From an uncultured Myxococcales bacterium (GTDB lineage: Bacteria; Myxococcota_A; UBA9042), in NCBI GenBank assembly GCA_903850505.1, contig CAINLT010000094.1, positions 2,016 through 66,015 on the forward strand: DNA of 64,000 nucleotides, written 5' to 3'. The notes under the pieces were generated by a model. That model saw only the letters and a list, made by a program, of their open reading frames with translations, was not told where the DNA came from and did not search any database. Positions 17,116 through 49,737 of the stretch are shown here, one piece after another. The translations under genes were made by a program, and so were the position numbers. Position 1 is the stretch's first letter, and each line of letters begins with the position of its first letter.

Positions 17116-17118
17116 CGA

Positions 17119-18194: not shown

Positions 18195-18221
18195 GATTTC
18201 CTCAACGTCCGTGGTCTGCGG

Positions 18222-19535: not shown

Positions 19536-19640
19536 ATGGAACTCTCCGCTCGGGCCGCCCGCACGACGGCGCTTCAGTCTTTCTCTGCGCCGGCCTCAGT
19601 CAAGGTCATGCTCAGGGTTTACACGTGATATCCGAAACTT

Positions 19641-20714: not shown

Positions 20715-20903
20715 GAAATCCTTGCGGATGCAGCATCTGGACGCAGGGGCGGCGACGATGATGCGCTCGGTAGATGGGGCGAATGCCCGCAGTCGGACTG
20801 CGAAGCGAGAACGTCACGCTTCTACCCGATTGCGGATGGAACGCAATTGGAAACCGCGAAGTTTAAATATTTTCGCAGACCTTCATTTGTATTTCGTTCG
20901 GCG

Positions 20904-21344
20904 CTACAACGACTCCGCCCGCTGCCGGAGCGCCTGGGCGGTGGCCTCGAATCCGCGCTGCACCTTGGCGTGCGCGACCAGCCAGACCAGCGGACTGAGC
21001 GGGCCGCCCATCTGCTCCACCGACGTGTACCGCGTCCGCCCATTTGCCAGCGCTGTCACGCGTTGGGTGCGCTGCGTTCGCAGCAACCAGGACGGCAGCA
21101 GCAGGGAGGTCCACACCAGCTCTTGATTGGCCACGACGGCGTCGACCCGCTCCGGATCGCGCCGCGGCGGCCGGCCTGGATCAAGGGCGACGTGCAGGTG
21201 GATGTGGGCGCCAGGCTCCAGCACGCCGTCAATGCGCGGCATGAAGGGATTCCACTCCGGATACAGCGCAATATCGACGAGCACCGCCCACACGACCTCA
21301 AGTGGCGCGGCAATTTCCAGTTCGGTTCTCGCCAGATCGAACAC
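20904..21344 (-). CDS. SRPBCC (START/Bet v1-like, polyketide cyclase/dehydrase-type) protein
   Basis: The 146-aa product starts MFDLARTELEIAAPLEVVWAVLVDIALYPEWNPFM, a typical SRPBCC N-terminal signature. Confidence 0.72.
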   Translation of the reverse strand: MFDLARTELEIAAPLEVVWAVLVDIALYPEWNPFMPRIDGVLEPGAHIHLHVALDPGRPPRRDPERVDAVVANQELVWTSLLLPSWLLRTQRTQRVTALANGRTRYTSVEQMGGPLSPLVWLVAHAKVQRGFEATAQALRQRAESL

Positions 21345-21588
21345 TGTTCAGTCCCTCCAGGCCATCGAGGGCCACAGCCGCGGCAGTGTTTGCGCATTTT
21401 GCGGGGGCGGTCAAGCGATGAATGGGCAGATAATCGACTGTGCGCCGCAGCGAGCGCGTCACGGCTCGGGCGTTGACCGAATAAGCTGGAGTACGAAATT
21501 CGTCCTGTGGATGAAGGCCGGAGGTCCGGCTTCAGCCCGTTTTTGTGGCACGCGTTCACGGGTGCTACCGTCGGGCACGCGCGTCGCC

Positions 21589-21909
21589 ATGCATCGTCAC
21601 TTTCCGTGCACGGCGGCTCTGAGCGGCACGTCGGGCTGCCAACACACGTCATCACCTTCTGGTTGCGACGATGGCAATGTGGGCATGGCCGACGCCTGCG
21701 TCGCCGACTCGACCTGCTCACATACCAGCGCCGAGGGCGCCTGCGATGATGGAGACGCTTGTACGATCGGCGAAACCTGCGCGTTGGGCTTGTGTGGCGG
21801 CGGCACGATCGGGTTTTGCCATCCCGCGGGAGATCGCCTGGCCAAGATCCCGTCGAGTTGGGCGCGACGGTGCGTCCAAACCTTGGCGATGCATCGGCCA
21901 CTGGTTTGA
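21589..21909 (+). pseudogene. Possible second remnant, or short ORF, of the Cys-rich CTxDxC family
   Basis: It contains GCDDGNVGMADACVADSTCSHTSAEGACDDGDACTIGETCALGLCGGG. There is no signal peptide, and the consensus Cys after DGN is replaced. It sits in an otherwise non-coding 615-nt gap immediately upstream of the intact family member at 21960. Confidence 0.3.
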
Positions 21910-28852: not shown

Positions 28853-31800
28853 GTGAAACAGAACAGCCTTTGGGGCGCCCTGCCAAGCTGGGGCGCCGCT
28901 GCCGTGATCACGCTTGTCGCCTGCTTGCCCAGACCAGCCGCAGCCGCGTGCGACGCCAGCCATCCCGCGGAAGGCTGTTGCGCCGGCGAGAAGATCCGCG
29001 GCTGCGACATCTACAACAACAACATCGACGACGACTGCGACATCTACGCCGGCTACCGGTGCGGGCACGACATTACGACGTCGAACACGGTAACTTGCAG
29101 CAGTCCGTCGATTGTCAATTACACGCCGCGCCAGAACGGCGACAACATTTGGTGCCCCGGCTTTTGCCAGTACGGCTGCTCCGGCAACAGCTGCCCGGGC
29201 ACGTGCACCAGCGATCAGACGTGCAACAACGGCACGTGCGTGGCCAGGGCGTGCGGGCATCCGGGCTACCTGCTGGCGTACTGGAATGATGGCACCAGCT
29301 ACAATCCGTCGCCTGGCCCGGCGGACACGGTGGGGCTCGTTTCGCTGGCGTCGACAACCAACCAAAGATATGGCTACGCGGTGCGCGACAACGGCAAGTT
29401 GGCGTATTGGGGCAGCGACTACGACACGCCCGGGATTTTCGGCGACGCGCACAACACCTCGATTACAAACGCGGTTCAAGTCGCGCCGGCCGCGCTCCAC
29501 GTGACGGTTTTGTTGGCGGACGGCACGCTGGTTGCCTGGAATGGTGCCTACGGCTATGCGCCGCCGGGCTATCAGGTCCAGCCGCCATCGAATTTGACGA
29601 CAGCCGGTGCCAACGTGGTCGCCATTGCAGCCGCCGGCGACGCCACCGGGGCGCTGCGCAGCGACGGCAGTATCGTGCTTTGGGGCGCCGACCTGGCGGG
29701 CAAATTCGCGGCGCTGAACGGCAAGACCGGCTTCAAGGGCATCGCGGCCGGCGGCGACCAGAACTTCATCGGCATCAAGACGGACGGCACCATCGTACAG
29801 GCGGCGGCGGACGGCACCCAGGGCAACAACACGTTCCTGCCCGCGCCTGCGGGGTTGAGCGGCGTCGTCCAGGCCGCGATTTCGACGTCGCGCGCCATTG
29901 CCCTCAAGCAGGACGGCACGGTCGTCACCTGGGGTTCGCAAGCCGTCGGCCCGCCCGGCGATTTGAAGCCGTGCCGCGCCGTCGCCGTGGGAGAATTCGC
30001 CTACGCCGACGCGTTCCTGTGCCTCCAGGTCGACGGCACGCTCCGCGTTTGGGGCAGCTACTACAACGTCAACACCGGCAACTGGACCGGCGGCTTTTCA
30101 GCCGGGACGATGGCCGGCATCAACTCGTTCAAAGGCGTCAATTTCCTCGACCCGCACGGCGTCGCCGTCATCTCGTGCACCGGCTCCTGCGGCGCGATCC
30201 CGCCCGACGGCTGCTGCGACGGCGACAAGGTCCACACGTGCAGCCCGCTCGGCGTCGACCAGGTCAGCACCTGCGCGGCCGGCACCTGCGGTTGGCAGAC
30301 GAGCGCGACCGACTACGAATGCAGCACCGCCGGCACCCCCGCGCCTGGCTTGACGCCCCTCCAGAGCTGCATTTGCGTGCCCAGCTGCAAGAACACGGAC
30401 GGCAGCGTCAAGCAGTGCGGCTCGGACGGCTGCGGCGGATCGTGCGACAAGGGCAGCTGCGACGACGGCGATCCCTGCACGATTTCCGACAAATGCAGTG
30501 GCGAAGTGTGCCTCGGCGGCGGCGCCTACAACTGCAGCGACGGCGACCTGTGCACCGACGACGCGTGCAGCAACCAAAGCGGCGCGGCCAAGTGCAGCCA
30601 CACGCCCAACACCGCGCCGTGTGACGACAGCAACGCGTGCACCAGCAACGACGTGTGCAGTTCCGGCAGCTGCGTGGGCGGCTTGGCCATCGACTGCAAC
30701 GACGGCAACGTGTGCAGCGACGACGCGTGCGACCCGGCCCAAGGATGCGTACACCTGGCTAACAGCGCGACGTGCAGCGACGGCAGCGTGTGCACGATCG
30801 GCGACGTGTGCAGCGGTTTGGCATGCCAAGCGGGCGGCGCGGCGCTCGATTGCGCCGATGGCAACGCGTGCACGGTGGACAGCTGCGATGCGACCGCCGG
30901 CTGCCGGCACGTCGACGCCGACCCGAGCACCGTCTGCGACGACAACAGCAACTGCACCGCCAGCGACCACTGCAGCGGCGGCAAGTGCGCGGGCACGTCC
31001 AACGTCAACTGCGACGACAACAACCCGTGCACCAGCGACAACTGCCTGGACCCGAACACCTGCGCGCCGCATGCCGACATCAACGAAAGCGGCGCATGCA
31101 GCGACGGTAACGCGTGCCACGTGGGCGGCAAGTGCATGGCGGGCGCGTGCAGCGGGCTCACGGCGCAGAACTGCGACGACGGCAATCCGTGCACCGACGA
31201 CGGCTGCGATCCCAAGAGCGGCTGCACGCACGGCAACAACGCGGCGGCCTGCAGCGACAACGATACCTGCACCGCGGGCGACGTGTGCGCGGGCGGATCG
31301 TGCATGTCGGGCGCGGTGGTCAATTGCGACGACAAGAACCCGTGCACCGACGACAGCTGCGACAAGGCGCTGGGCTGCCAGCACGTGGCCAACAGCCAGC
31401 CGTGCGACGACAAGAGCGTGTGCACCCAGACCGACACCTGCGCGGCTGGCCTGTGCGTGGGCGGCAACCTGAAGAGCTGCGACGACGGCCAGCTGTGCAC
31501 CAACGACACGTGCAACGCGCTTCTCGGCTGCCAGCATGCGAGCAACACCGCGCCGTGCGACGACGGCAACGCCTGCACCAAGGGCGACAAATGCTGGCAG
31601 GGCGCGTGCGTCGGCGGGGCCACCCCCAGTTGCAACGACGGCAACAGCTGCACCGACGACAGCTGCGACGCGCAAAACGGCTGCGCGTACAAGGCCAACG
31701 CGGTCGTGTGCAGCGACGGCAATCCGTGCACCTTGGGCGACTCATGCTCGCTGGGCAGCTGCAAACCAGGGGCCACTGGGCTCAACTGCGACGACGGCAA

Positions 31801-34800
31801 TCCGTGCACGACCGACGCGTGCATCGCCGGCAAGGGCTGCACCAACACCAACAACAGCCTGGCGTGCGACGACGGCCAGCTGTGCACCGTGAGCGACACC
31901 TGCGCCGGCGGCAAGTGCGTTGGCGCGGCCAAGCCCTGCAGCGACGGCAACAAGTGCACCGACGACCTGTGCGACAACGCCAAGGGCTGCTGGTTCCCGA
32001 ACAACACCGCGCCGTGCGACGACGGCAACGTCTGCACCAGCGGCGACACGTGCGCGGGCGGCAAGTGCCAGACCGGCGCGCCCAACACGGCGGCGTGCGA
32101 CGACGGCAACCTGTGCACGCTGAGTGATACTTGCAGCGGCGGCACGTGCATCGGCGGCGCGACCAAGCCGTGCGACGACGGCAATCCGTGCACGGCCGAC
32201 TACTGCTCGCCCACCGGCGCCGGACCGAGCGGCTGCTACCACGGCAGCTGGGAAAAAACCGGCGCGAGCTGCGATGACAACAACGCGTGCACGGTCAACG
32301 ACGGCTGCAAAGGCGGCGCCTGCGCTGGTGTAAGTGCGTGCTTGAGCGGCAATTGCCAGTTGGTTGGCGGCGCGCCGACGTGCCCGTGTCCGGCCGGCTA
32401 CAAGTCCATCCCGTACGACAACAGCGCGGTCAATTACTGCTGCCACCCCGACTGCAGCAACAAGAGCTGTGGCCCGGACGGCTGCGGCGGTGTGTGCCCC
32501 AACACGTGCACGGACCAGGAAAACTGCAGCTTCGACACGGATTACCACTGCATGCCCAAGACCGCCTGCTACGGCAAGGCGCCCGTCGGCGCGGGCTGCT
32601 GCGTGGGCGATACGCTGTCGCGCTGCTTTGCCCCGAAGGCGCTCTACAGCTGGGACTGCGCGGCGCAAGGCAAGCACTGCGGCTGGAACTCGGGCGACTA
32701 CCAGTACGAATGCACCACTGAAGGCGCGACCGACCCCAGCGGCGCCCACCCGTTCCTCTGCCCCGGCGCCACCTGCACGCCCAACTGCAGCGGCAAGAAC
32801 TGCGGCCCGGACGGCTGCGGCGGCACTTGCGGCACCTGCCAGAGTGAGTGGGTCTGCGACTACAGCGCGGGCAAATGCACCCACCCGTGCGACGGCGTAG
32901 TGCCTCTGCAGGGCTGCGTCGCGGGCCAATTGAACGGCGCGGACGTGGTCGAGTCCTGCCCTGACATGTACGCCAAGGCCAGCGCGGTCGGCCAGAGCGT
33001 GTGCGACCCGCAATTCCCCGCCGCGTGGGATCCCAAGTCCAAGCACATCCTGTGCAGCGCCGGCTACCCCATTCCGGCCGGCGTCACCAAGGCGTGCCCG
33101 GTCCAGGCGTGCAGCTGCGGCATCGGCGTGTTCCACCACAACTGCGGCGACAACGGCTGCGGCGGCTCTTGCGGCACGTGCAGCGGCGCGGACGTCTGCC
33201 ACGACGGCAACTGCTGCACGCCCAACTGCACCGGCAAGGTCTGCGGCGACGACGGTTGCGGCGGCTCCTGCGGCTCCTGTCCCACCGGCAAGCAGTGCAT
33301 GGCCAGCGGCAACTGCGCGGTCCCCGAGTGCGCCGACATGTACGCGCCCACGGGCCAGTGCTACGGCACGCCGGCCAACACCGCGTTCAAGAATTCCGTT
33401 TCGTACTGCACGCAAAATGCGAAGGTTTCGACCGTCTGCCCCGCCGGTTCGTCCATGTGCTTGAACGGAAGCCTCAGCACGTGCATGTTCTCCGAGAGCA
33501 GCTTCAAGTGGCTCAACGGCGGCCTGAGCTGGACGTCGTTTGCCAGCAACTCCTGCGCCGCCCGCATCAGCGAGTTCCAGTGCGCCAAGACCGCGACCGG
33601 CTCCGTCTGCGAATGCGACCCGGGATGCGTGCAGGAAGGCAACTGCTGCCCCGACTACGCGGCGGTGTGCGGGGCCAAGCACAATCCGCAGCAGTGCGGC
33701 GACGGCACGTGCGCCAGCGACCGGGGCGAAACGTGCGAGACGTGCAAGGCGGACTGCGGCGCTTGCACGGCGACGACCAAGCCGGAAGGCCCGTGGGCGA
33801 TGCCGTATCCGGCGTACATCGAGTCGCAAGGCAACCCAGATGCGCGGGCGGTGCGTGCGATTCGGCCGCTGGACGACGTTCGGCCGCAAGTGCCGCCGCT
33901 GCCGCTCGAGGGCCTGGTGGCGTACGTGCCGGGGCTGGATGCCGCGCAGACGGCGCCTGGGGCGCAGGTCAAGGTGCAAGCGGCCAAGGCGGGCGGCGCG
34001 GCGACAGCGCTCAAGACGGGCGGCGTGCAAGGCGACGCGATTTCGTTCAGCAACGCGGCGGACCAGAGCAATGGCGGCGTCGTGAGCATGATTCCGGACG
34101 TGCTGCTGCCCCATGCGGCGAGCTACGCCACGCACCAGCCGGGCGGCGTGACGATCGCGGGCTGGGTACGGACGGCGACGGGTTCGCAGGCGCACCCGAA
34201 CGTGCTCGGGGCCGCGCGCTACCCGGGCACGACCGGCGCGACCAAGTGCACCTGGAGCCGGCCGCAGGAAGCCGCCGCGCCCATCTCGTGCGGCAGCGGC
34301 AAGATCGTGGCCATCCAGGCGTATTACGGCGAGGTGAGCAAGTCCCGCTTTCCGCCCTACACGAACGGCGACCAGAGCCTGTCATCGGCGTCCTGTGACC
34401 TGCTGCCGCAGCTGGAGCCGACCCACAAGTGCGAGGACGCGGCGGTGCAGGCGCTGGCGGAGAAGGCGTGCCTCGGCAAGGCGTCGTGCTGGGTCGATCC
34501 GTGGCCGGAAGCGCTGGATCCGTGCTCGAGCGCGCCGCATAAGCCGATGAAGTCGACGCTGCTGCTGCGCGCGGTGTGCGATGCCGCGACGCCGAATGCG
34601 GGCGCGACGCTGGCGGTGGAAGCGGCAAGCGATGGCGGCCGGCTGCGCTTTGACGCCCCGGGGCTGCCGGCGCTGGTCAGCCAGGGCGAGTTCCCGCAGC
34701 ACGCCTGGACGCACGTGGCGCTCGTGTTTTCGCCGCACAAGGGCTCGCAGGACGGCACGGTGACGCTGTTTGTCAACGGCAGTCCGCAAGCGCAGCTGGA

Positions 34801-37800
34801 AGGCTACGGCTTTCCGCGCTTTTACCAGTGGGATTGGGGTGTTGGCCACGTCGCGGGCGCGGAGGCCGGCTGGGACGGTTTCCTGGATCCGGGCGTCAGC
34901 ACGCAGACGCCGAACCTGACGGGCCATTTCGACCTGGACAACGCGGTGCTGTACGACCGGCCGCTGCAAACGGCGCAGCTGGTGAGCCTCGTCAGCCAGC
35001 CAAACGTGGGGACGGTGCGGGTGTGGCCGGCGTTGGATGCGCCGCGCGTGGCCAAGCTGGGCCTGTGGGCAAATGGGGGCACGCCGGCGACGACGGCCGT
35101 CAAGCTGGATCAGCTGGTGGATCCGACGACGGGCGCCGGGCTTGCCGCGGACTTCCAGGCGCTCACCGTGCCAGGCGGCCAGTTCCAGGCGCCCGCGGAA
35201 GGCAGCGACTTGACCGGCTTGCAGAATTTCGCCGTGGGTTCGTGGATCCGCGCCAGCAGCCTCAGCGCCGGCAGCACCTTGTGGCAGTTCACCCAGGGCT
35301 CGACCACGCGGTTGAAGCTCAGCGTCGACACCACCTGCAGCGGCAGCGGCATCAAGGCGGAAACGGCCAGCGGCACGGTGACTTCCACTACGTGCGCGCA
35401 CGCGCTGCAGGCCAACGCGTGGGCGTTCGTCGCGTACGTCCAGTCCGGCAGCACTGGCAGCGTGTTCATCGACGGCGCGAAGCTCGGCTCCGCCACGGTC
35501 GGCGCACCGCTCTTTGACTCCAGCGGCACGGGCGCGCGCAAGTTCAGCACCGGCGCCGGGGTGGACCTCGGCTGGAGCGCCTTGTACAGCCGGGCCTTGA
35601 CGGCGGACGAACTGACCGCGCAGGCAAGCCAGGGACCCGCCGTGTGGCTCGACGGCTCGTACTTCCAGCCCACGGGCGCAGCAACCGCCAAGCTCCGCGA
35701 TTTCGCCCTCTTCCGCAACGTCGGCACCAGCGCGGTCACCGGCGTCGCGCGGGCCTACGCGAACGGGTCCCAGGTCACCGGCAGCAGCCAGCTCAGCGCG
35801 GCGACCGTCATCGTGCCACGCACCGGCCGCTTCCACGCCGGCGTCGTCAACGGCACTGTCAGTTCGGGCACGACCTCCTACACGTGGGTCGGCACGGTCT
35901 CGGTGGACCCCAAGATCGACAAGACCTACCCGCTCTTCCGGCGCGGCGACGGGACGTACACCGACGACCGGGTGACGCTCGTCTGCACCAAGCTCACGTT
36001 GCAGGACGGCACGGGCGTCGGCTGCCACGTCGACGGCGCGATCCAGTTCACGTACAGCGGGACCGCGCTGCATACGCACGTGTCGTCGGAGACGTTCTCG
36101 CTGGTTTCGGGCGTCCCGCAACCGGTGCGGCTGGCGGTGGCGCTCACTGGCGACACGTTCGCGGCGGCGCTGTCCGTCGCGCCGTCGTCAAATGCCGCGG
36201 CGTTCCAGCTCGGTTTGGGCACGGACACGTTGACGGACCACGCGTCGCACCTGCTGCACATGACCAACCTGGGGCCGCAGACGGAGGCGATGGCGCCGCT
36301 GCTCTTGACCACGCCGTGGGATGGCATCCTGCTCGACGGCGCCACGAGCGACGCTTGGCTGGACATGCGGCTGTACGCGCGGGCGCTGGGCGACGCGGAA
36401 CTGCGGGAAGTGGCGGCGGTCGGCTGTGCGGCGGACGCATGCGACGATCGGCTGCGGACGTGCACGCTGGCCGGACTCGGCGCCGGCGTAAGCTTCATGG
36501 CCCCGGCCGGCCTCGCCACCTGCACCGGCTGCCAGAGCACGGCGTTTGAAGTCAACGCCACGTGCCTGCCCAAGGGCGGCTTCCGGGAAGCCTGCTCGTA
36601 CGCCGACGACTGCGTAAGCGGCCTGTGCGTGCACGGTCACTGCCGCTCCACCAGCGCCGATGCGGACTGCGCCGCCGGCTGCCTGAAGTTGGGCCACGCC
36701 TGCCAGGCCATGACGAGCGGCGGCTACGAATGCGGCCCCGCCTGCCTGACCGACTTCACCGCCGGCGTGTACGCGGCCGACCCGATCTCCGGCGAACAGG
36801 TCCTCGCGTGCGCGTGGCATCCGGCCAAGGACACCCTGGATCGCTGCAGCGCGCACGAGGACTGCGGCTCCGGCGTGTGCTCCGACCAGACGTCCGCCGC
36901 GTACAACGTCACCAACACGGACACCAAGCTCACGGCGCCCGTTTATTCGAACAGCGGCGGCTACGGCGTGAGCACCGGCACCACCGGCCCGCTCGAAACC
37001 TGCACCAGCGCGGACCAGTGCGCCAAGGTCAGCCACACGTCCATCACGGAAAAAGTGTGCGCCGCCGAGACCAACGCCGCATGCGCCGCGCAGCTGATGC
37101 AATCGCGCGTCGTGCACACGACATCGTGGGACGGCACGAGCAAGGACGGCTACGTGTGCGAGGGCTGCCTGAGCGACACCTACCAGGGCGACGCTGGCGA
37201 TCCCAACAACGGCAAACCGCTCTACGTCCAGGGCTGGTCGCTGCTGGCGCCGGACGCGTGCCGCAAGGTGTACGAAAACTACTTCGCGCTTTTGAACAAC
37301 GGCGTGGTCACGGTCGGGTCGAGCAGCTACCACAGCAATTCCGACGGCTGGGAGGATTCGACCCGGCTGGCGAACATGGGCGACATTTTGGCCCATCCGC
37401 CGGAGCTTTCGCGGCTGCGCAAGCTGGTGCTGAACGATGGCAATCCGACCAGCGCGGTGACGCCGGCGATTCTGTCGCAGCTGGAGCAGGCGGGCGTTGG
37501 GCGGCTGCTCCTGGACCCGAACCTCAAGCCGTGGGCGTACGACTACGGGTTTTATCCCACGGCCTTCAACGGCTATTTGGAAACCTCCCTGCGGCCGGCG
37601 CAGAACCGGCTCGGCGACTGCGCGCGCAAATCCTACGATTTCACCAACTACGAAGGCTGGCCCGGCGGCCACGTGACCAAGACGCCGTACTACGACCGCG
37701 ACGTGAACCGGCCGGTGTGCCTGGAAAACAAGTTCCCCAACGGCGCGACCTGCCCGCCCGCCAGCACGGTCAAGACGTACACGCGAGCCAACTCCGGGCT

Positions 37801-39007: not shown

Positions 39008-40935
39008 AGCGGTGGCAAATAGCGACGGCGGCGCTCGTTGTAACCGGCGTCCTGGGTGCGGTGTGGTACTGGCAGAACGCCGCCGCGCGCACGGAAGTGA
39101 CGGTCGACGCCGCGGCGAAAGTGCCCCACCCAGCGGCGGCGACGGCTGCGGGCAAGGCTCAGCCTGACGCTCAGGGCACGGGCGGTGATGCGTACGCCCT
39201 CGACTACAGCTTTGAGATGACGGCGCCGTTTGCCAACGCTGCGGATCAGACGCTGCACCTGCACGTGACGGGCACGCTGGAGCTGGGCGCCGCGCAGCCC
39301 GACGCGGACGGGGCGTGGCAGCCGGCGCGTCTGGTGGCCGGGCATGTCGAACAGGACGCCGTGGCCGCACGCGTGCTGGACTGGTCGCTGCCGGGCGTGG
39401 AGGCGGAGCTGGCGCGGCCGTTTGCGTTCCACCTGCAAAAAGACGGCCGGGTCGATGCGGTGCGCTGCGATCCGACTCTGGCTTTTGCCACCCGCTCGAC
39501 ACTGGCGGGCGCCGCTTGGGCCATCCAACACGTGCATCCAGCCACCGCGGCGGCGACGTGGCAGCTGGAGGAGCGCGACGCCAATGGCACCTATCAGGCG
39601 AAGTACCGTCAGGCGGCGGCGGGCGTGGTCGAAAAAACCTGGCAAATTGGCCAGAACGGCGACGATCCGGCGCGGCTGGCGCAGGTCTCGAACGGCAGCG
39701 CGCGGTATGCCGTGAACGCGCATGGCCTGGAAACCATGACGTGGGCGCTCTCGGGCACGGCCGCGACCGGTTCGCTGGATCCGGCCAAGTACAAGCCGTT
39801 TGCCCTCAAGATTGGCCTCACGCGCACGGGCGCGGTGGACGCAGCGTGGGCCGCGACGATCCGCCCGGAGGCGCTGCAGCCGTTCACGTCCGCGAGCGCG
39901 AAAGTCCGGCAGCGTCTGGAAGCGCCGACGCGGCCGCTGGATACGGTCCTGGCCGACGTGGCGCAGAAGGCCGAGCACCTGGATCCGTCCGGTCACGTGA
40001 CGCTGCGGGACGAATTGACGCGCGCGGTGCGCCAGGATGCGGATGGTCCGGCGAAGTTGGCGGCGCAGTTGCGGCAGGATGCTGCACCGGGCGAGGCGCG
40101 CAGGCTCGCGGTCGAGGCGCTGATTGGCGCGCGGACGGAACCGGCGCAGGAGATGGCGGCGCAGCTGATGGCGGACGAGACGCTCGCGCAGCCCGTGCGG
40201 CAGGAACTGCTGGCGGCGGCGGCGTTCATGTCGAGCCCGACGGTCGCGTTTGTCACGTCGCTGGAGAAGCTCGCGTACAACCCGCGCGCGTCGACGGTCA
40301 GCGCGGATGCGGCCACGACGCTGGGGGCTGCCGTCGCCTTTCTGGCCGAAAAGAACCCGCAGGCGGCCCGACCGGTCCTGGAGCGCCTGATCGCCAACGC
40401 TGGACCGGTGCTCGGGCGTCCGACCGCCAAACACGCGCAGCCCTTGGCCGTGCGCATGGCCTGGCTGGCAGGCCTCGGCAATACCGGCGACGCGGCGACG
40501 CTGTCGCTGATTCTGCAGGCGCTGGGCGACAAGGACGAGTTCGTGCGCGGCGCGGCGGCGCTGGCTTTGCGGCGACAGGACCCCGCAGCGGTGGCGACGC
40601 CGCTCATCGATCGAATGGCGATTGAAACGTCGGCCCACACGCGGGCGCGGCTGGTCGACGCGGCGCGCTTCCTGGGCCCGGACAAGCTGGGCGAGCTGGT
40701 GGAAAAGGCGCTGCGCTACGACCGCAGCGAGCACGTGCGGCTGGCGGCGGCCTACGCGATGACAGTGTGGTCGACTGCGGCGCCGGGGCTGCGCAAGACG
40801 TTGGTGGACGCGCTCAAGCACGAGAAGTCGCCCAAGGTCGCGGCGGCGCTGCAGCATGACATCAACCAGGGCCAGGTCGATCCGGGGGTCGCGGTCAAAT
40901 CCGTGCACATGGGCGGAGCGGGGGCGACACCATGA
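39004..40935 (+). CDS. N-terminally membrane-anchored protein with C-terminal HEAT-like repeats
   Basis: ATG 39004 overlaps the stop of the giant gene (ATGA). The TM anchor is MKRWQIATAALVVTGVLGAVWYW. HEAT-like repeats read LGNTGDAATLSLILQALGDKDEFVRGAAALALRR and ALRYDRSEHVRLAAAYAM. The part of track ORF 38764 upstream of 39004 lies out of frame inside the giant gene. Confidence 0.8.
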   Translation: MKRWQIATAALVVTGVLGAVWYWQNAAARTEVTVDAAAKVPHPAAATAAGKAQPDAQGTGGDAYALDYSFEMTAPFANAADQTLHLHVTGTLELGAAQPDADGAWQPARLVAGHVEQDAVAARVLDWSLPGVEAELARPFAFHLQKDGRVDAVRCDPTLAFATRSTLAGAAWAIQHVHPATAAATWQLEERDANGTYQAKYRQAAAGVVEKTWQIGQNGDDPARLAQVSNGSARYAVNAHGLETMTWALSGTAATGSLDPAKYKPFALKIGLTRTGAVDAAWAATIRPEALQPFTSASAKVRQRLEAPTRPLDTVLADVAQKAEHLDPSGHVTLRDELTRAVRQDADGPAKLAAQLRQDAAPGEARRLAVEALIGARTEPAQEMAAQLMADETLAQPVRQELLAAAAFMSSPTVAFVTSLEKLAYNPRASTVSADAATTLGAAVAFLAEKNPQAARPVLERLIANAGPVLGRPTAKHAQPLAVRMAWLAGLGNTGDAATLSLILQALGDKDEFVRGAAALALRRQDPAAVATPLIDRMAIETSAHTRARLVDAARFLGPDKLGELVEKALRYDRSEHVRLAAAYAMTVWSTAAPGLRKTLVDALKHEKSPKVAAALQHDINQGQVDPGVAVKSVHMGGAGATP

Positions 40936-43082
40936 TGCGCTTTGTATGGGCGTTGGCGATTCTGTGCGCGGCATGCGGCCACACGGCGAGCACTTCGTGC
41001 GGCGCGGGCGCCATCGAGGTGGACGGCCAGTGCGTGCCCGACCCGAACGCGCTGGCGTGTGGCGCGGGCACGGTCGCGGATGGCGGCGTGTGCTATCCGG
41101 CAAACGGCGGTCCAGACGCAACTGCGGACGAAGTGGGCGGGCTCGACGCGTCGGACTCCGGTGAAGTGGCAGACGCCTTGGTGGGCGACATTCCGTGCCA
41201 GCCCAACTGCGCCGGAAAGCAATGCGGCGACGACGGCTGTGGCGGGACTTGCGGGGCATGCGCATCGGCCGCGGCACCCATCTGCAACTCGATCGGCGTG
41301 TGCGTCGCTTCCTGCACTGCGGAATGCACCGGCAAGACCTGCGGCGACGACGGCTGCGGCGGCGTGTGCGGCATGTGCGGCACGGACAGCGGCTGCAGCA
41401 GCATTGGCCAGTGCGTACCTAAAGCCTGGACCTGCAACGCGCTCTATTTTGGCGCCGGCGACGCGTGCGACTGTGCGTGCGGCGGCTATGACCCCGACTG
41501 CAAGGACCCCGAGGCGCCGCTGGCCGGCTGCGGCTCGCTGCAAAAATGCGACGCGGCAGGCAAATGCGTCGACAAGAACCCGGCCGGCTGGACCTGCGCG
41601 CCCACGAGCTACGACGCGCTGGACGGCTGCGACTGCGGCTGCGGCGTGCCCGATCCGGACTGCGCGGTGGCAACTTTGCCCGTCATTGGCTGCAAGACCG
41701 GCGAAGCCTGCAGCACCGCAGGCGCATGCGTGGCGTGCGTTCCCGCGTGCAATGGCAAGAATTGTGGCCCCGACGGCTGCGGCGGCTCGTGCGGTTCCTG
41801 CGGCGAGGGCGCCGTCTGCGACGCGGGCACGTGCGCCGACCCCTGCAAGCCCACGCCCATCGCCTGCAAATACGCGACCTGCGGCGACGACGGCTGCGGC
41901 GGATCCTGTGGCACATGCGCGGCCGGCAAGACGTGCGACGGCGGCACGTGTGTTGTCGTCGGCCTGCCGGAAGCGCCGACCTCGTGCGTGGGCCACTGCG
42001 GCAGCACCGCGCTTTCCGGCTGCTCCTGCGCGCCAAAATGCGTCGCCAACGGCACCTGCTGCGACGACTACAGCGCTGTGTGCACCTGCAAGCCGGACTG
42101 CACCGGCAAGGCGTGCGGCCCCAACGGCTGCGGCGGCACGTGCGGCACCTGCGGCGGCAACGCGCCTTGGTGCGACGCGACCGGCCAGTGCAGCGCGACG
42201 TGCACCAAACAGTGCACCGGCAAAGCGTGTGGCGACGACGGCTGCGGCGGCACGTGCGGCCAGTGCGGCGCGGACAGCGTGTGCTCGACCTACAGCCAAT
42301 GCGTGCCCACCGCGTGGCAATGCCCCATCCCGTACTTCGCCGACGGCATCGCGTGCGACTGCGGCTGCGGCGCGCCCGATCCCGACTGCGCCATTGCCAA
42401 GGTCCTGACGTTTGGCTGCCCCACCTCGACCACCGCATGCGATGCCACGACCGGCTTGTGCAAATCCACGTTCTGTAAGTCCGACACGACGTGCGGCAGT
42501 CAAGCGTGCGTGGGCCTGTATGCCACCGGCGGCGGCGGGTACGGCGGAGTCTGTGGCGCGCAAACCAGCGGCGGCAAGAACATGGGCCAACTCTGCGCCT
42601 CCGCGGGCGAATGCAAAAGCAGCGTGTGCTTGGGCGGCCTGTGCCGGCAATTCTGCCAGACCGACGGCGAGTGCCCCGGCCAGTTGAAGTGCCTCGCGCT
42701 GCCCGTCACCGGCCCGGCGAACGCGGTCGTGGGCTTGACCGGAGTGTGCGAGGCTGTGAATGGCTCCGGCGGCGCGTGCACCAAGCAGGCGGACTGCACC
42801 GCGTTTGGCGAATCGTGCCAAGCCTTCGCCGACGCCAAGACCTTCCAGCCGCGCTACCTGTGTGCCATCGGCAGCAAGACGTCCGGGGCCAAGTGCGGCC
42901 TGCAAGCGTGCGGCGCGGGCCAGTTCTGCGTCGCGGATAGCGCGGGCAAGCACTGCGGCGCCGCGTGTCCAGGCGGGAGCAGCGACTGCACGAGCGGAAC
43001 CTGCGGCACGACGACGTTCAACAACGCCGGGACGAACGCGCCCGCCGACGATCCGAAGGTGCCTGTATGCGTGCAGCCGTGA
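40932..43082 (+). CDS. Cys-rich secreted lipoprotein with CGxDGCGGxCGxC, W.C...DxCDCGCG..DPDC and somatomedin-B-like modules
   Basis: ATG 40932 overlaps the preceding stop (ATGA). The lipobox is MMRFVWALAILCAACGH. There are six CxGKxCG(D/P)(D/N)GCGGxCGxC modules and three DxCDC(G/A)CG..DPDC modules. One 8-Cys module reads SCVGHCGSTALSGCSCAPKCVANGTCCDDYSAVC. Confidence 0.85.
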   Translation: MMRFVWALAILCAACGHTASTSCGAGAIEVDGQCVPDPNALACGAGTVADGGVCYPANGGPDATADEVGGLDASDSGEVADALVGDIPCQPNCAGKQCGDDGCGGTCGACASAAAPICNSIGVCVASCTAECTGKTCGDDGCGGVCGMCGTDSGCSSIGQCVPKAWTCNALYFGAGDACDCACGGYDPDCKDPEAPLAGCGSLQKCDAAGKCVDKNPAGWTCAPTSYDALDGCDCGCGVPDPDCAVATLPVIGCKTGEACSTAGACVACVPACNGKNCGPDGCGGSCGSCGEGAVCDAGTCADPCKPTPIACKYATCGDDGCGGSCGTCAAGKTCDGGTCVVVGLPEAPTSCVGHCGSTALSGCSCAPKCVANGTCCDDYSAVCTCKPDCTGKACGPNGCGGTCGTCGGNAPWCDATGQCSATCTKQCTGKACGDDGCGGTCGQCGADSVCSTYSQCVPTAWQCPIPYFADGIACDCGCGAPDPDCAIAKVLTFGCPTSTTACDATTGLCKSTFCKSDTTCGSQACVGLYATGGGGYGGVCGAQTSGGKNMGQLCASAGECKSSVCLGGLCRQFCQTDGECPGQLKCLALPVTGPANAVVGLTGVCEAVNGSGGACTKQADCTAFGESCQAFADAKTFQPRYLCAIGSKTSGAKCGLQACGAGQFCVADSAGKHCGAACPGGSSDCTSGTCGTTTFNNAGTNAPADDPKVPVCVQP

Positions 43083-46054
43083 AGCAAGTTGGATGGGTGC
43101 TGCTGGCTCTGCTTGCGGCGTGCGGCGGCGGCAAGAGCGGACCTGAATGCGGACCGGGCACGGCGCTGCACGATGGCCAGTGCGTGCCGATCGCCGCGGG
43201 AATCGACGCCTGCGGGCCGGGGACGGCGCTGGACGGCTCCACGTGCGTGCCGGAAGGGGAGCCTGATGCGGGTGCAACGGACGTCGGACCTGACGCGCAA
43301 GTCGATGCGGCCGGCGATGCAACGGCTGTGACGTGTTCGCCGGCGTGCGGCAAGGGCCAATACTGCGATGAACTGGGCGCGTGCCAAACCAACCCGCTGC
43401 CCGCCAGCTGGACTTGCGCCAAGGCGGTCTGGGCGGACGGCGCGACCTGCGACTGCGGCTGCGGTGCCTTCGACCCCGACTGCGCCAACGCCACCTGGCC
43501 CGTAAGCGGCTGCCCCGGCGCCAAGGCCTGCCAGGACGACGGCAAGTGCCCCGCCTGCACCCCCGCCTGCACCGGCAAGTCCTGCGGCGACGACGGGTGC
43601 GGCGGCTCGTGCGGCGCGTGCCTCGATCCCGCCAAGCCAGTGTGCAGCGGCGGCCAGTGCAGCGCGTGCGTCCCCAACTGCAGCGACAAGTCCTGCGGCG
43701 ACGACGGGTGCGGCGGCTCGTGCGGCGCGTGCGCCACCGGCAAAATGTGCGCGGCGGGCGCGTGCGTCTTTCCGCCGCCCAGCCTGTCGTGCGTCGGCCA
43801 TTGCGGCGGCGAGCCCGGCGGCGGCTGTTCCTGCACGGCCGCGTGCCAAGCCAAAGGCAACTGCTGCGTGGACGTCGGCGTCTGCGGCTGCCTCCCCAAC
43901 TGCGCCGGCAAGGACTGCGGCGACGACGGCTGCGGCGGCACCTGCGGCATCTGTCCCGGCGGCTCGACATGCGTGGCGTCGATCTGCGCCGTTGGCGAAT
44001 GCACGGACGCCACGTGCTCCGGCAACGGCACCTGCGCCGGCTTGGGCTGCGCGTGCCAGCCCGGTTACGCTGGCAAGTTCTGCGACCAGTGCGCCGCCGG
44101 CTACGTGAACTATCCGGACTGCGTGACGGCCTGCGCGAGCGTCCTGGAATGCAACGACGGCAATCCGTGCACCGCGGACGCATGCAGCGCCAAGTCCGGC
44201 TGCACGCACTTGCCCACGGACGCCACCTGCACCGACGGCAGCGCCTGCACCAGCGGCGACGCGTGCGTCCTGGGCGCTTGCGAACCGACATTGACCACCG
44301 GCTGCGACGACGCCGACCCGTGCACTGCCGACGCGTGCGACCCGGCCGTCGGCTGCAGCCATTTGCCCGGCGGCATCACAGCGTGCGACGACGGCAACGC
44401 ATGCACCGGCAACGACAGCTGCGCCAATGGCTCGTGCGCGGGCTCGCCCGTGGGCTGCGACGACGGGAACGTGTGCAGCGCGGACAGTTGCGATGCCGGC
44501 AGTGGCTGCGTCCATCTGGGCACCGGCGCGACCTGCACCGACGGCGACGCGTGCTCGCTCGGCGGCGTGTGCAACGGCATAACCTGCACCAGCGTCGGGG
44601 CGAAATCGTGCGACGACGGCAACGGCTGCACCTTGGACGTGTGCGACGGCGGGCAGGGCGCATGCGTCCACACGCCCGCGAGCGCCACGACGGCCTGCGA
44701 CGACGACGACCTCTGCACCAGCGGCGAGATGTGCGACGGCAACGGCCAGTGCGGCGGCGGGGCCAAGATCTGCGCCATGCCAACGGTCGGTGGGCTCGTC
44801 GGGCACTACAGCGCCGCGCAGCCGAGTTCGCTCAACCTCGACGCGGCGCAGCACGTCGTCGCGTGGCAGGATCAGGGCGGCGCGGGGCGGACGTTGACGG
44901 CCATCGATGTGCAGCAGGCGCCGCAGCTCGTGCCGGCGGGAATTCACGGCCGGCGCGCGCTGCTTCTGACCGGCGCGGGACTTGCCAGCGAGGCGTACGC
45001 GGATTCCGGCGCGGTCAGCCTGTTTGCGGTCGTGTGCACGCCAGCAAGCGGCAGCAGCAATTTCGTCGGTCATGGCGGCACCTGGGCGCTGGCAAGTGCC
45101 CCGACGGCCCTTGCGTTCCAGGGCGGCGGCGGCAGCATCCAGGGCGCAGCTTCTGGGGACTCGTGCTACGTCGTTGCGGCGCGCGTGGGCCCGGGCGGCG
45201 GCGATCTGCTGTTGGCAACCGGTACGTCCAGCCTTGCCACTGACCTGAGCCTCGTCCCGACGGCCACGACCGCAGCGCTAGCCATCGGCGACGGCGGCGG
45301 CCTGATCGGCGAACTGCTCGTGTATGACGGCAAAGTGGCCGACGCTGACCGCGACGCGCTGGTCAATTACCTGCGCACCGCGTGGGGTTTCGAGCCGCCG
45401 CAGCCGGACTTTGTCTGGTACGAAGCAGGGGACACGCCCACGGTGCAGACCGACGACGCCGGCAACGTCAGCCAGTGGAAAGACAAAAGCATGCTGAATC
45501 GGCACGCGCTCCTCGGTGCGGCGACGGCGCCCGTGTGGTACGCGAACGGAACTTCCAATGGCCGGCCGGCGCTGCGCTTTGACGGCGCCAACGTGCTCTT
45601 GCAAACGGCGGCGATTCCGGGCGTGGTGCAATTGACCGCGTTTGTCGTGTGCGAGCTTGATGCCCCGGCGGCGGCTGGCAGCGTGTTCGCGCAAGGGCAG
45701 GACAGTCATTTCGCGCTGCGCAAGGACGAGTCGGCCGCGACGCCGGCGTTGGCGTGGAGCGTGGGACAGGATCCGGCGGTGGCGTCGGCGTCCTACACGG
45801 CTGGGAAGTGGGCGGTGTACGTCGCGGTGCAGGACGGCACCAGCGCGCTGCTCGGGAATGGCAGCCTCACCGCGACGGGCCAGTCCAGCGCAGCGATTCC
45901 GGCGGCGTCCGAGGTCCTCACCCTCGGCAACGCCAAGGCCGGCGGCGCATCGATGGGTGGCTTCCTCGCGGAAATTCGCGCTTACGCCGAGACGCTCGCG
46001 CCCATCGACCGCGCGTTCGTGCAAGGTCTGCTGCGCACGAAATACGGCCTTTAG
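43067..46054 (+). CDS. Cys-rich secreted lipoprotein with EGF-like and CTxDxC repeats and two C-terminal LamG-like domains
   Basis: ATG 43067 lies 16 nt inside the preceding gene. The lipobox is VGWVLLALLAACGGG. An EGF/laminin-EGF-like block reads CSGNGTCAGLGCACQPGYAGKFCDQC. CTxDxC repeats span roughly 44150-44760. LamG-like hallmarks are GELLVYDGKVADADRDALVNYL and GFLAEIRAYAETLAPIDRAFV. Confidence 0.85.
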   Translation: MRAAVKQVGWVLLALLAACGGGKSGPECGPGTALHDGQCVPIAAGIDACGPGTALDGSTCVPEGEPDAGATDVGPDAQVDAAGDATAVTCSPACGKGQYCDELGACQTNPLPASWTCAKAVWADGATCDCGCGAFDPDCANATWPVSGCPGAKACQDDGKCPACTPACTGKSCGDDGCGGSCGACLDPAKPVCSGGQCSACVPNCSDKSCGDDGCGGSCGACATGKMCAAGACVFPPPSLSCVGHCGGEPGGGCSCTAACQAKGNCCVDVGVCGCLPNCAGKDCGDDGCGGTCGICPGGSTCVASICAVGECTDATCSGNGTCAGLGCACQPGYAGKFCDQCAAGYVNYPDCVTACASVLECNDGNPCTADACSAKSGCTHLPTDATCTDGSACTSGDACVLGACEPTLTTGCDDADPCTADACDPAVGCSHLPGGITACDDGNACTGNDSCANGSCAGSPVGCDDGNVCSADSCDAGSGCVHLGTGATCTDGDACSLGGVCNGITCTSVGAKSCDDGNGCTLDVCDGGQGACVHTPASATTACDDDDLCTSGEMCDGNGQCGGGAKICAMPTVGGLVGHYSAAQPSSLNLDAAQHVVAWQDQGGAGRTLTAIDVQQAPQLVPAGIHGRRALLLTGAGLASEAYADSGAVSLFAVVCTPASGSSNFVGHGGTWALASAPTALAFQGGGGSIQGAASGDSCYVVAARVGPGGGDLLLATGTSSLATDLSLVPTATTAALAIGDGGGLIGELLVYDGKVADADRDALVNYLRTAWGFEPPQPDFVWYEAGDTPTVQTDDAGNVSQWKDKSMLNRHALLGAATAPVWYANGTSNGRPALRFDGANVLLQTAAIPGVVQLTAFVVCELDAPAAAGSVFAQGQDSHFALRKDESAATPALAWSVGQDPAVASASYTAGKWAVYVAVQDGTSALLGNGSLTATGQSSAAIPAASEVLTLGNAKAGGASMGGFLAEIRAYAETLAPIDRAFVQGLLRTKYGL
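43577..43732 (+). repeat. Exact 45-nt direct duplication, with copies starting 111 nt apart
   Basis: aagtcctgcggcgacgacgggtgcggcggctcgtgcggcgcgtgc occurs at 43577-43621 and identically at 43688-43732. It encodes KSCGDDGCGGSCGAC. Confidence 0.9.
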
Positions 46055-47968: not shown

Positions 47969-48309
47969 CAGAGGGTTCAGAACTCCAGCCACCAGTACCT
48001 CCGCAGTTGCCACCCGACTCGCACGCCTCTGGAGGTGCGCTGGGGCCACGTGCCGAACTTTCCGCACGCATCCAAGCTCCGCGGAATTCCAGACTTTCCC
48101 GAACCGCGAGGCCTATCCAGCATGCCGCGTCCAACGCGCCCGTCAAGGCCCGGGATGGCGTGAGATTGCCGTGTTTGCGCGCAAAGTTCGCAGTTGCGTT
48201 GGCGTTTGCCTAGCCCCGACGAGGATTTGCCGGGTGCGCTTGCACAAGCGGAACATGAACTTTACGCTGTCCAAGGGGCTGCTTGCTCCCGTCAGCGAGC
48301 GACGCCTCC

Positions 48310-49737
48310 ATGAACTTTTTCTCCCGCTTTCGACCGCTCCCCGTCATCGCTGCACTGCTGGCAACCGCGCTGCCCGCCGTTGCTGCGCTCGCCGCCGACG
48401 CCGACAAGACAGGCCTGGAGCTCAGCGTCGGTGCCGCTTGGCACCAGTGGACCCCACGCGACGAACTGGGCCAGTCGTGGGATGGTCACTCGCTGGTCAG
48501 CGGCATGGGGCCGGTGTTGCGCGTCGGGTACCGCGTCCTGCCTTGGCTCGGATTCGAGGCGGAAGGCGTTCTCCTGCCAACCAAGGGCCGAGACGATGGG
48601 ATCTCCGTTCTCGCCGCCGGTGTGCGTGGCCACGCCGTGGCGTTCTGGAATCTCGGCGACTGGCAGCCGTTCGCGCTCATCGGCGCCGGCTCCAGCATTG
48701 CCGCACCCGCCGCTGGCAGCCGAATCTACACCGATCAGGACACGATTAGCGACGTCGGCATTGGCCTGCAATACGCCCTCACACGCGCCTGGAGCGTCCG
48801 CGCCGACTTGCGCGGGTTGTTCCTGCCCGCGATAACTGACGGGGGTTCACGCTTCACCGCTGAAATGGAAGGACAATTGAGCATCGGCTGGCGGCCCCTG
48901 GCGGGTGGCCCGCGGACCGAGGAGCCAAACAGCGCGCCTGTGTCGTTGGACACCGACAACGACGGCATTCTGGACGACGACGATGTCTGTCCATACGAAG
49001 CCGAGACCGTCAACGGCGTACGCGATACTGACGGGTGCCCGGAACTGGAGAGCGAGGTTCCTGCGGCGTCGGGCTCCTCGCCGCGCGCGCCTTCCCAGGA
49101 CTCGGCCAGTCTTGGCGCGCTACCGGAGCCGGAGCGGCTGACCGATCCAGATGGCGACGGCCTGTTTGGCGACGAAGACCAGTGCCCGAACGCCGCCGAA
49201 GACAAGGACGGCTTTGCCGATGGCGACGGTTGCCCTGACCCCGACAACGACGGGGATGGCGTTCCGGACGCGGCAGACAAATGTCCGCTCGCCGCGGAAA
49301 CCGCCAATGGTTATGAGGACGGTGACGGGTGCCCGGACGAAGTTCCGGCGCAGCTCGCCAAGTTCACCGGCCGTATTGCGGGCATCAACTTCCAGCCGAA
49401 CAAGGACGTCATCGCCAAGTCGTCGGACAAAGTGCTGCTCGGCGCCGCCAAGGTGCTGCAGGAGGCGCCGTCGGTCCGGCTGCGCATTGAGGGCCACACG
49501 GACGCCAGCGGTGACCCCGTAAAGAACACGGAGTTGTCGCAGCGGCGCGCCGAGGCTGTGCGCAAATGGCTGATCGCCAAGGGTATTGACGCCACACGTC
49601 TGGAAGCCAAAGGGTACGGTCCGAGTGCGCCGGTTGCCGACAACGCCAGCGCCGCGGGCCGCGCGCAGAATCGCCGCGTTGAGTTTCACCTGATTCAGGA
49701 CAATGCAACGCCAGACGCAGAGGGGAAAAGCAAATGA
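48310..49737 (+). CDS. OmpA-family outer-membrane protein with thrombospondin type 3-like Ca-binding repeats
   Basis: The signal peptide is MNFFSRFRPLPVIAALLATALPAVAALA. TSP3-like repeats read DTDNDGILDDDDVCP, DPDGDGLFGDEDQCP and DKDGFADGDGCPDPDNDGDGVPDAADKCP. The OmpA C-terminal domain reads RIEGHTDASGDPVKNTELSQRRAEAVRKWL...NRRVEFHL. Confidence 0.88.
   Translation: MNFFSRFRPLPVIAALLATALPAVAALAADADKTGLELSVGAAWHQWTPRDELGQSWDGHSLVSGMGPVLRVGYRVLPWLGFEAEGVLLPTKGRDDGISVLAAGVRGHAVAFWNLGDWQPFALIGAGSSIAAPAAGSRIYTDQDTISDVGIGLQYALTRAWSVRADLRGLFLPAITDGGSRFTAEMEGQLSIGWRPLAGGPRTEEPNSAPVSLDTDNDGILDDDDVCPYEAETVNGVRDTDGCPELESEVPAASGSSPRAPSQDSASLGALPEPERLTDPDGDGLFGDEDQCPNAAEDKDGFADGDGCPDPDNDGDGVPDAADKCPLAAETANGYEDGDGCPDEVPAQLAKFTGRIAGINFQPNKDVIAKSSDKVLLGAAKVLQEAPSVRLRIEGHTDASGDPVKNTELSQRRAEAVRKWLIAKGIDATRLEAKGYGPSAPVADNASAAGRAQNRRVEFHLIQDNATPDAEGKSK

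Follow-up and report, generated by a model that had tools for sequence, protein, structure and literature searches.

Large lipid transfer proteins (LLTPs), which build low-density lipoprotein (LDL), yolk and insect lipoproteins, have been described as an animal invention; they are said to serve lipid transport in animals, and their emergence has been linked to multicellularity (PMC12214520). The barrel and helical domains of MTP (microsomal triglyceride transfer protein), which is bound to protein disulfide isomerase (PDI), chaperone nascent apoB in the lumen of the endoplasmic reticulum (ER), and the barrel carries a disulfide (C174-C194 in MTP, C156-C182 in lipovitellin) (PMC6717300). Here, a four-gene cassette (A-B-C-D, 28853-46054, + strand) was analysed within a 64,000-nucleotide stretch of contig CAINLT010000094.1 from an uncultured Myxococcales bacterium; this whole stretch is referred to as the window, and all coordinates are positions in it. 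Three of the genes encode predicted exported proteins that are extremely rich in Cys, and the operon is tied to the animal lipoprotein machinery because the Cys-poor protein B encoded in its middle is a predicted homologue of the LLTP N-terminal module. The analysis reveals a previously undescribed cassette and also a wider two-gene bacterial system, made up of an N-module and a beta partner. A literature search found no account of bacterial LLTP/Vitellogenin_N homologues or of a Cys-rich cassette of this kind, and, where the first-pass annotation could name no characterised bacterial system of such composition, none was matched in the Pfam, NCBIfam and literature searches either.

The operon and its LLTP-like protein

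Gene A (28853-39007) is an open reading frame whose translation gives an exported giant protein of 3384 aa with 248 Cys, gene B (39004-40935) encodes 643 aa with 1 Cys, gene C (40932-43082) a lipoprotein of 716 aa with 110 Cys, and gene D (43067-46054) a lipoprotein of 995 aa with 94 Cys. Cys makes up 7.3%, 15.4% and 9.4% of A, C and D, respectively, and the four products together hold more than 450 Cys. The arrangement proposed in the first-pass annotation, four + strand genes joined by an ATGA overlap at A/B, another at B/C and 16 nt at C/D, was confirmed, and Shine-Dalgarno (SD)-like sites were found in addition at the internal starts (GGAGG for B, GGAG/GGGGG for C and GAAGGTG for D), each within the 3' end of the gene before it. 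Gene A starts with GTG, with AAGGGAG 5-6 nt 5' of this codon. The conserved tails of A ("...GHGGTP") and B ("...TP") are explained by the SD-like sites embedded in the gene ends. As judged from these features, the four genes are a translationally coupled operon of an uncultured Myxococcota lineage. Scans for promoters and terminators at both operon ends gave nothing exceeding shuffled sequence.

The fold of B was modelled with AlphaFold (AF2) from an alignment of five sequences (mean predicted local distance difference test, pLDDT, 76.5). The model begins with a hydrophobic helix (residues 1-26, 39004-39081; model helix 2-26), and then has a disordered linker (about 30 aa; low pLDDT, 18-59). 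A beta-barrel resembling the LLTP N-sheet comes next (residues 60-280, 39181-39843; strands E60-E279, pLDDT 72-94), which aligned with the barrels of MTP, lipovitellin and apoB, and the model continues as an alpha-helical superhelix (residues 296-622, 39889-40869; helices H296-H622) with PBS-type HEAT repeats at 480-590. When this model was compared to the PDB with Foldseek, the top 10 matches, of 367-735 columns, were all LLTPs: human MTP (6i7s, E 5.9e-16, and also 8eoj), lamprey lipovitellin (1lsh, E 3.9e-15, TM 0.58), the beta-alpha1 region of apoB-100 (9bd1, E 2.8e-12) together with full apoB-100, honey-bee vitellogenin (9ens, 1.5e-10, and 9enr, both about 1e-10) and the apoB barrel alone (9bd8, 367 columns, E 1.7e-7). 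Nine of these alignments cover 595-735 columns and therefore span both the barrel and the helical domain. Generic HEAT/ARM proteins appeared only from E 1e-5, and matched the helical part alone.

At the sequence level, Pfam matched Vitellogenin_N to residues 351-528 of B with 23.4 bits (gathering score 24) and HEAT_2 to residues 482-553. The first-pass annotation had read B as a Cys-poor, N-terminally anchored HEAT protein; the single Cys and the hydrophobic helix bear out part of that description, but HEAT_2 covers only residues ~480-590 and the protein as a whole is better accounted for as an LLTP N-module homologue. A plain PBS-lyase-type HEAT repeat protein was rejected, as HEAT_2/alphaRep matches are confined to about residues 472-590 of 643 and the remainder consists of the barrel and LLTP-type helices.

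The homology to LLTPs is backed at the family level, since B alone lies just below the threshold whereas its relatives match. Vitellogenin_N was detected in 7 of 15 B orthologues (E cut-off 0.01) and in 46 of 67 wider relatives (E cut-off 1e-3, best 7.9e-24). An exhaustive HMMER search with residues 58-475 of B returned 610 cluster representatives at E <= 1e-3, and nearly all family members are 580-720 aa long. When a profile of the 67 relatives was compared to PDB sequences, lipovitellin was found at 1.4e-17 and apoB-100 at 5.8e-8, and the large subunit of MTP at about 9e-14, with profile positions 60-569 on chain positions 20-555 and with the barrel and the helices in register. Thus, on the evidence of the model and the profiles, B belongs, as a divergent member, to a large family of bacterial homologues of the LLTP N-terminal module.

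The LLTP set used for comparison consisted of the MTP large subunit, vitellogenin/lipovitellin, apoB and apolipophorin, with the Pfam PF01347 module. Like B, animal LLTPs have a half-open beta-barrel and, after it, a helical superhelix of two layers. Unlike them, B is bacterial, has ~640 aa, begins with an N-terminal helix anchor, carries PBS-type HEAT repeats as its C-terminal helices, and lacks the A/C-sheet cavity, the vWD domain and the barrel disulfide. The cavity is taken to be missing because B ends ~20 residues past its last helix; among 132 B-family members, none was fused to a beta domain or to an A-type beta module, and there was no Pfam match to LLTP sheet domains in A-D. Also unlike animal LLTPs, B has as its constant partner a distinct protein that bears an amphipathic beta module and is encoded upstream. 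B is therefore better named a bacterial LLTP-N-like protein than an LLTP. An N-terminal hydrophobic stretch was present in 120 of the 132 family members, and no conserved AxA or signal-peptidase site was found in the family, so B is predicted to be anchored in the inner membrane with its body in the periplasm.

Conservation of the cassette and its constant core

A word-indexed search with B returned only five clusters of close relatives, and on all five of their contigs the neighbours were the same and in the same order, as overlapping or near-abutting genes. A scan of one genome per species yielded 15 further loci, all of them in high-GC metagenome-assembled genomes (MAGs), with titles that name Myxococcales/Myxococcota in nine cases and Deltaproteobacteria in three, the other three being uninformative or wrong; the named sources are lakes, groundwater and sludge. 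As assayed by tblastn/blastp, the A-B-C-D order, whose conservation in relatives the first-pass annotation had proposed to examine, was kept wherever the contig was long enough, on more than 20 Myxococcota metagenome contigs overall, and one MAG carried two paralogous cassettes. The order is thus co-conserved, and the cassette is therefore a real unit. None of the genes flanking it in the window was found at any related locus, and the related loci had no fifth gene 3' of D in common, including any Dsb/PDI-like partner.

Two of these loci (L005, CAYURO010000039.1, and L016, CAZLMW010000049.1) are titled 'uncultured Enterobacteriaceae bacterium', a label that is probably wrong because of their G+C content of 64-68% and their Myxococcota-like gene content. 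At L010, an extra large open reading frame lies 3' of D (17575-21858), with a CTDC array 45% identical to residues 535-1095 of A, so that further Cys-rich genes extend the cassette in some genomes.

More distant members of the B family were sampled through their contigs, and a profile of the C-terminal module of A (A2 or cmod) was run on the upstream gene or genes. At L025 (B identity 32%) the upstream protein has 2751 aa (E 3.7e-109) and is accompanied by a C-like gene and a shorter D-like gene. At L019 (27%) the upstream protein has 1700 aa, 2.9% Cys and no CTDC array (E 6e-45), and a C-like lipoprotein 44% identical to C is encoded, whereas at L023 (about 26%) a large upstream protein (E 1.5e-33) was found with a C-like Cys-rich lipoprotein. 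The three remaining B-like proteins are also distant. The one at L024, with a strong Vitellogenin_N match, follows a gene whose end matched at E 3.9e-9; a Ser/Thr kinase gene comes next, the contig stops after 0.5 kb, and there was no C-like gene in the 0.5 kb remaining downstream. At L026 the upstream protein has 1032 aa (E 2e-11) and an RCC1-like lipoprotein is encoded between it and the B-like gene. Finally, at L021 a 316-aa secreted protein is encoded upstream, with a weak match scoring 13 bits (single-target P about 3e-6), and genes for FtsE, FtsX and an M23 peptidase follow.

In each of the six distant contexts sampled, the B-like gene therefore had an A-type C-terminal module encoded upstream of it, with a weak match in the case of L021. 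BLAST alignments of the upstream proteins of L019 and L025 to A run from residue 2484 or earlier to 3368, and that of L023 covers residues 2781-3369 only, with a LamG segment apart from these; the distant cassettes, with Cys at 2-3%, do not have the Cys-rich repeats arrayed in A. As far as these comparisons go, the C-terminal module is the sole part of A that accompanies B-like genes wherever sampled. Because the pairing recurs at distant loci, the constant core is a pair of genes, the first for an amphipathic beta-module protein and the second for an LLTP N-module protein, to which C, then D, and the long lectin/propeller/CTDC array of A are, as judged from these loci, successive additions.

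Two of the distant loci show other arrangements. At L021 (10001-14615), the B-like gene with a strong Vitellogenin_N match lies directly 5' of ftsE, ftsX and the M23 peptidase gene, which hints that some members of the family may work in a cell-envelope/division context without Cys-rich partners. At L026 (4329-5366), the RCC1-repeat lipoprotein has a gene of its own, while A of the window has the RCC1 propeller fused into its N-terminus; this shuffling suggests a functional role for the propeller within the system.

The C-terminal module of A and a possible split assembly

The conserved C-terminal module of A (residues ~2484-3384, 36302-39004), the part common to the distant cassettes according to BLAST and a 17-sequence alignment, ends with an amphipathic beta module (residues ~3160-3370, 38330-38962) of ~10 strands with one hydrophobic face and one E/K-rich face. 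The strands follow a strict hydrophobic/charged alternation, and the family average of the beta hydrophobic moment reaches >=2 at residues ~3160-3370, compared to about 1 elsewhere. Identity among A orthologues is 28-59% (15+ loci).

With a probability of roughly 40%, and by analogy with MTP, the cassette would encode a split LLTP-like assembly, in which B clamps the beta module of A and chaperones or lipid-loads A, with C and D as tethers. B would sit at the inner membrane on the periplasmic side, gripping the C-terminal beta module of A in the way that the helical domain and the barrel of an LLTP hold its A and C sheets. It might then shield or chaperone the hydrophobic sheet, possibly loading it with lipid, during the oxidative folding and export of the 248-Cys body, as a parallel to the action of MTP on nascent apoB in the ER lumen. 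At the outer membrane or on the cell surface, the lipoproteins C and D may serve the assembly as a tether or scaffold, and the N-terminal part of A, which varies between clades and holds the RCC1 propeller, the CTDC array and the lectin-like and LamG domains, would face outwards and bind ligands. The contact between B and A is proposed because of the MTP analogy and the gene linkage. B would resemble MTP in lying in an oxidising export compartment beside very large exported clients, and the cassette resembles the MTP-PDI-apoB pathway in that an LLTP N-module is found beside a giant exported client with amphipathic beta structure and disulfides. In contrast to that pathway, no PDI/Dsb-like gene is linked to the cassette, and the clients are made of unrelated Cys-rich modules.

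Several observations weigh against such a split assembly. The barrel disulfide of LLTPs is missing from B, with its 1 Cys and a family median of 1, and the gene order (beta module, then N-module) is opposite to the domain order of LLTPs. A profile of 17 A C-termini gave no match in the PDB at E <= 10, the C-terminal module resembles the A/C sheets of LLTPs in neither Pfam nor PDB searches, and the AF2 model of the C-terminal 605 aa of A, made from a four-sequence alignment, reached a pLDDT of 32.8, too low to be used. The clamp is thus proposed only from gene linkage and amphipathicity. When the 316-aa protein of L021 was compared to the A module with hhalign, the probability was 9-21%, which is weak. 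Finally, both the topology of B and the place where A, C and D end up are predicted. Word-indexed homology searches with the A C-terminus returned 2-3 proteins only, and the alignment became no deeper.

The same pairing of genes could also mean that lipid handling is the main job of the system: B and the C-terminal sheets of A would form a lipid-binding cavity and act as a true lipid carrier, with roles such as phospholipid extraction from the inner membrane, lipid transit through the periplasm or secretion of lipid particles or vesicle complexes (e.g. for scavenging of prey lipids), while the Cys-rich domains would merely target or stabilise the particle. Every structural relative of B transfers or carries lipid, the partner has amphipathic beta strands like those of the apoB belt and of the sheets that face the lipid in LLTPs (PMC6717300), and the pairing persists without Cys-rich partners at L024, L026 and L021. 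This carrier is nonetheless unlikely, given that B lacks the lipid-binding A/C sheets, that neither the Pfam and PDB searches nor the AF2 model described above gave evidence of such a sheet in the A module, and that no conserved lipid-metabolism genes adjoin the cassette.

The alternation in the beta module bears on a further explanation, according to which the ~10 C-terminal strands of A would form a transmembrane beta-barrel in the outer membrane, as an anchor or autotransporter-like domain of a new kind, and B would be a tethered periplasmic chaperone or bridge, loosely TamB-like. The strands are 8-14 residues long, with strict hydrophobic/polar alternation and many aromatics, and a conserved last strand, K-V-D-F-x-W, lies close to the C-terminus; a large exported protein that ends in amphipathic strands, together with a partner predicted to be periplasmic and anchored in the inner membrane, is also reminiscent of type Va autotransporters and of TamA/TamB. 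This anchor is improbable, since the polar face is unusually Glu/Lys-rich, a variable tail of 8-30 aa follows the aromatic motif, so that this motif is not the protein end, there is no Pfam match to autotransporter or outer-membrane-protein barrel families, and a 248-Cys passenger would be ill suited to classical type V secretion. The differences from autotransporters and TamB are thus a Cys-rich passenger and the LLTP-type fold of B in place of an AsmA/TamB beta-groove.

A type Va autotransporter in the strict sense was rejected, as the C-terminal 605 aa of A had no Pfam match at E <= 1, the 12-strand Autotransporter barrel included, and the protein contains 248 Cys, whereas autotransporter passengers are Cys-poor. 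The first-pass annotation had seen no recognisable T1SS, T5SS or sortase-type export or anchoring signal in the operon, but the conserved C-terminal module of A is now a candidate signal.

Hydrophobic segments lie within the final 130 residues of A, and many large surface toxins are encoded by Myxococcota (bioRxiv 10.1101/2025.11.11.687626), which might suggest that A is secreted as a giant toxin and enters target membranes by means of its hydrophobic C-terminal module, with B as its chaperone or immunity protein. We consider this highly improbable: the C-terminus of A is conserved and has no polymorphic tip, no Rhs/YD, toxin or immunity families were matched, and B is predicted to be exported or anchored outside the cytoplasm and has tenfold the size of a typical immunity protein. 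An Rhs/teneurin-like polymorphic toxin was rejected as a class, with no YD/RHS matches and a conserved A C-terminus.

Modules of the exported proteins, neighbouring genes and implications

The split assembly proposed above leaves the greater part of A, and all of C and D, as clients or tethers, and these proteins are, according to the domain searches, exported disulfide-rich mosaics of common modules, C and D being lipoproteins. The first-pass description of three exported, extremely Cys-rich products built from common modules was sustained, with the Cys counts given above, lipoboxes in C and D and a Sec-type signal in A, and the recurring motifs of its list were counted in A, C and D as CTxDxC, CGxDGCGGxC and CDCGCGxxDPDC. 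Its list of domains was partly upheld: Dicty_CTDC, Laminin_G_3 and RCC1_2 scored above the Pfam threshold, but the SUEL, somatomedin-B (SMB)-like and EGF-like (E about 0.1) units were weak only. A, C and D contain CGxDGCGGxC 5, 6 and 3 times, respectively, and CDCGCGxxDPDC 0, 3 and 1 times. These two units and the C-terminal module of A have no Pfam or NCBIfam entry, most of the Cys-rich modules matched no family in either database, and the NCBIfam scan of the four products gave nothing useful.

Protein A begins with a Sec-type signal sequence (residues 1-31, 28853-28945), read from the window sequence alone, in which LVAC at residues 21-24 is a possible lipobox. An RCC1-like beta-propeller follows (residues ~170-440, 29360-30172; Pfam RCC1_2 26.1 bits, cut-off 22; WD40_RLD 39 bits), and RCC1_2 is also annotated (precomputed) on the A orthologue of L001. 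The Dicty_CTDC repeat array (residues ~536-1165, 30458-32347) was matched in 10 stretches (Pfam E 4.7e-22, 77.9 bits, cut-off 27); 11 of the 12 CTxDxC motifs of A lie within it, 10 of them at a spacing of ~52 aa (residues 567-1035). The Cys-rich region that comes next (residues ~1166-1560, 32348-33532) has four CGxDGCGGxC modules (regular-expression matches at residues 1206, 1317, 1431 and 1464) and no Pfam family at E <= 1. It is followed by a weak SMB-like module (residues 1566-1610, 33548-33682; PDB sequence match to the ENPP1 SMB, 2ys0, E 0.028), a sub-threshold SUEL-lectin-like segment (residues 1845-1893, 34385-34531; Pfam SUEL_Lectin 19.1 bits, cut-off 31.4) and a LamG-like domain (residues 2113-2254, 35189-35614), the better of two Laminin_G_3 stretches (Pfam E 6.8e-14, and 7.5e-16 on the segment alone).

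Protein C, the best-conserved product of the cassette (47-68% identity), is still 44% identical where the identity of B falls to 27-32%. Its lipobox Cys15 (40974-40976) lies in a lipobox that was detected in 17 of 17 orthologues, the next residue being G in 15 of the 17 and S or A in the others. A weak SMB-like module is found at residues 344-385 (41961-42086; PDB sequence match to the EndoU SMB region, 9ftw, E 0.0055), and C has no Pfam or NCBIfam family. In D, the lipobox Cys19 (43121-43123, LLAAC|G) belongs to a lipobox kept in all 10 orthologues, and a Dicty_CTDC array (residues ~350-560, 44114-44746) was matched in 4 stretches (Pfam E 1e-18, 67.2 bits, cut-off 27), with CTxDxC at residues 368, 419, 470 and 521. 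A LamG-like domain is located at residues 868-977 (45668-45997; Pfam Laminin_G_3 27.8 bits, cut-off 27.6).

Another Cys-rich gene of this type was observed 5.4 kb 5' of A (21960-23411, +), with 70 Cys in 553 codons and a third-position GC below that of the neighbouring genes; the N-terminus of its product, MAKARYFWLWLACALAGAC, is lipobox-like and is followed by about ten Dicty_CTDC-like CxDxxxCTxDxC repeats.

The lectin-like, LamG, propeller and CTDC domains of A and D, together with the lipoprotein nature of C and D, would also fit an adhesin or matrix operon, along the lines of the matrix, cohesion or prey-recognition role suggested by the first-pass annotation, in which A, C and D are adhesive or matrix proteins and B is a generic assembly factor made of helical repeats, its LLTP ancestry saying nothing about the mechanism. 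In bacterial teneurin-like proteins, a family commonest in Myxococcota, Dicty_CTDC is counted as one of the variable N-terminal domains, which have been read as adhesion modules (bioRxiv 10.1101/2025.11.11.687626). Such an operon is unlikely, as the arrays are variable, B and the A C-terminal module are retained in distant cassettes that have lost the CTDC array and most Cys, and the strict linkage of beta-module and B-like genes is left unexplained. The likeness to eukaryotic extracellular matrix proteins suggested by the first-pass annotation was retained in part: several modules do belong to families known best from extracellular proteins of eukaryotes, but they do not define the system, their array being missing in distant versions.

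A and D carry bona fide Dicty_CTDC repeats (tandem, ~24 aa), as do the CTDC-repeat extracellular proteins of Dictyostelium, a membership at the level of the domain only. Unlike bacterial teneurin-like proteins, A and D have no YD shell, NHL, FN-plug or toxin tip, and the CTDC array is dispensable in distant cassettes. In Myxococcus, TraA/TraB is an outer-membrane exchange receptor made up of a surface protein with a lectin-type domain and Cys-rich repeats, plus a partner gene. Here, the repeats are of another type, and TraAB has no LLTP-like component; a TraA-type receptor or MYXO-CTERM protein was rejected, as no PA14, TIGR-type Myxococcus Cys-rich-repeat, MYXO-CTERM or OmpA-type partner matches were found in A-D with Pfam and NCBIfam.

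The window, which is chromosomal in appearance with ~68% G+C, also carries genes for type IV pilus assembly, an RND efflux operon and genes of the Ser/Thr kinase and CHASE2 sensor kinds. The pilus assembly block (2-6320, -) includes PilM_2, PilO and an AMIN-domain secretin-like protein cut by the window start. The 2447-aa product of 9775-17118 (-) was matched several times by ABC ATPase, UvrA_inter and UvrA_DNA-bind, and resembles a giant, tandem version of a UvrA-like protein, about 2.5x as long as is usual for UvrA. An OmpA-family protein with an N-terminal outer-membrane-protein barrel and a thrombospondin type 3 repeat is encoded two genes 3' of D (48283-49737, +), in a neighbourhood that is not kept at related cassettes.

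Beyond the window, a broader scenario may be put forward, which we regard as speculative and unlikely. In it, bacteria would possess a two-part system in which an inner-membrane-tethered N-module (at least 610 clusters) and a separate beta-sheet partner form a periplasmic lipid cavity, animal LLTPs would descend from this system or share an origin with it via gene fusion and horizontal transfer, and the present cassette would be a lineage-specific elaboration whose sheet partner has turned into a 3384-aa disulfide-rich surface protein. If this were true, animal MTP, apoB and vitellogenin would be of bacterial or common origin, contrary to their emergence with multicellular animals. A diverse bacterial N-module family, always beside a gene for an amphipathic beta-sheet protein, offers a lead on the origin and the minimal form of the LLTP machinery, and may be, beside Lpt, Mla and AsmA/TamB, a new class of diderm proteins that handle lipids or clients in the periplasm. 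For myxobacterial biology, the cassette adds a conserved, uncharacterised envelope system with the Cys content described here.

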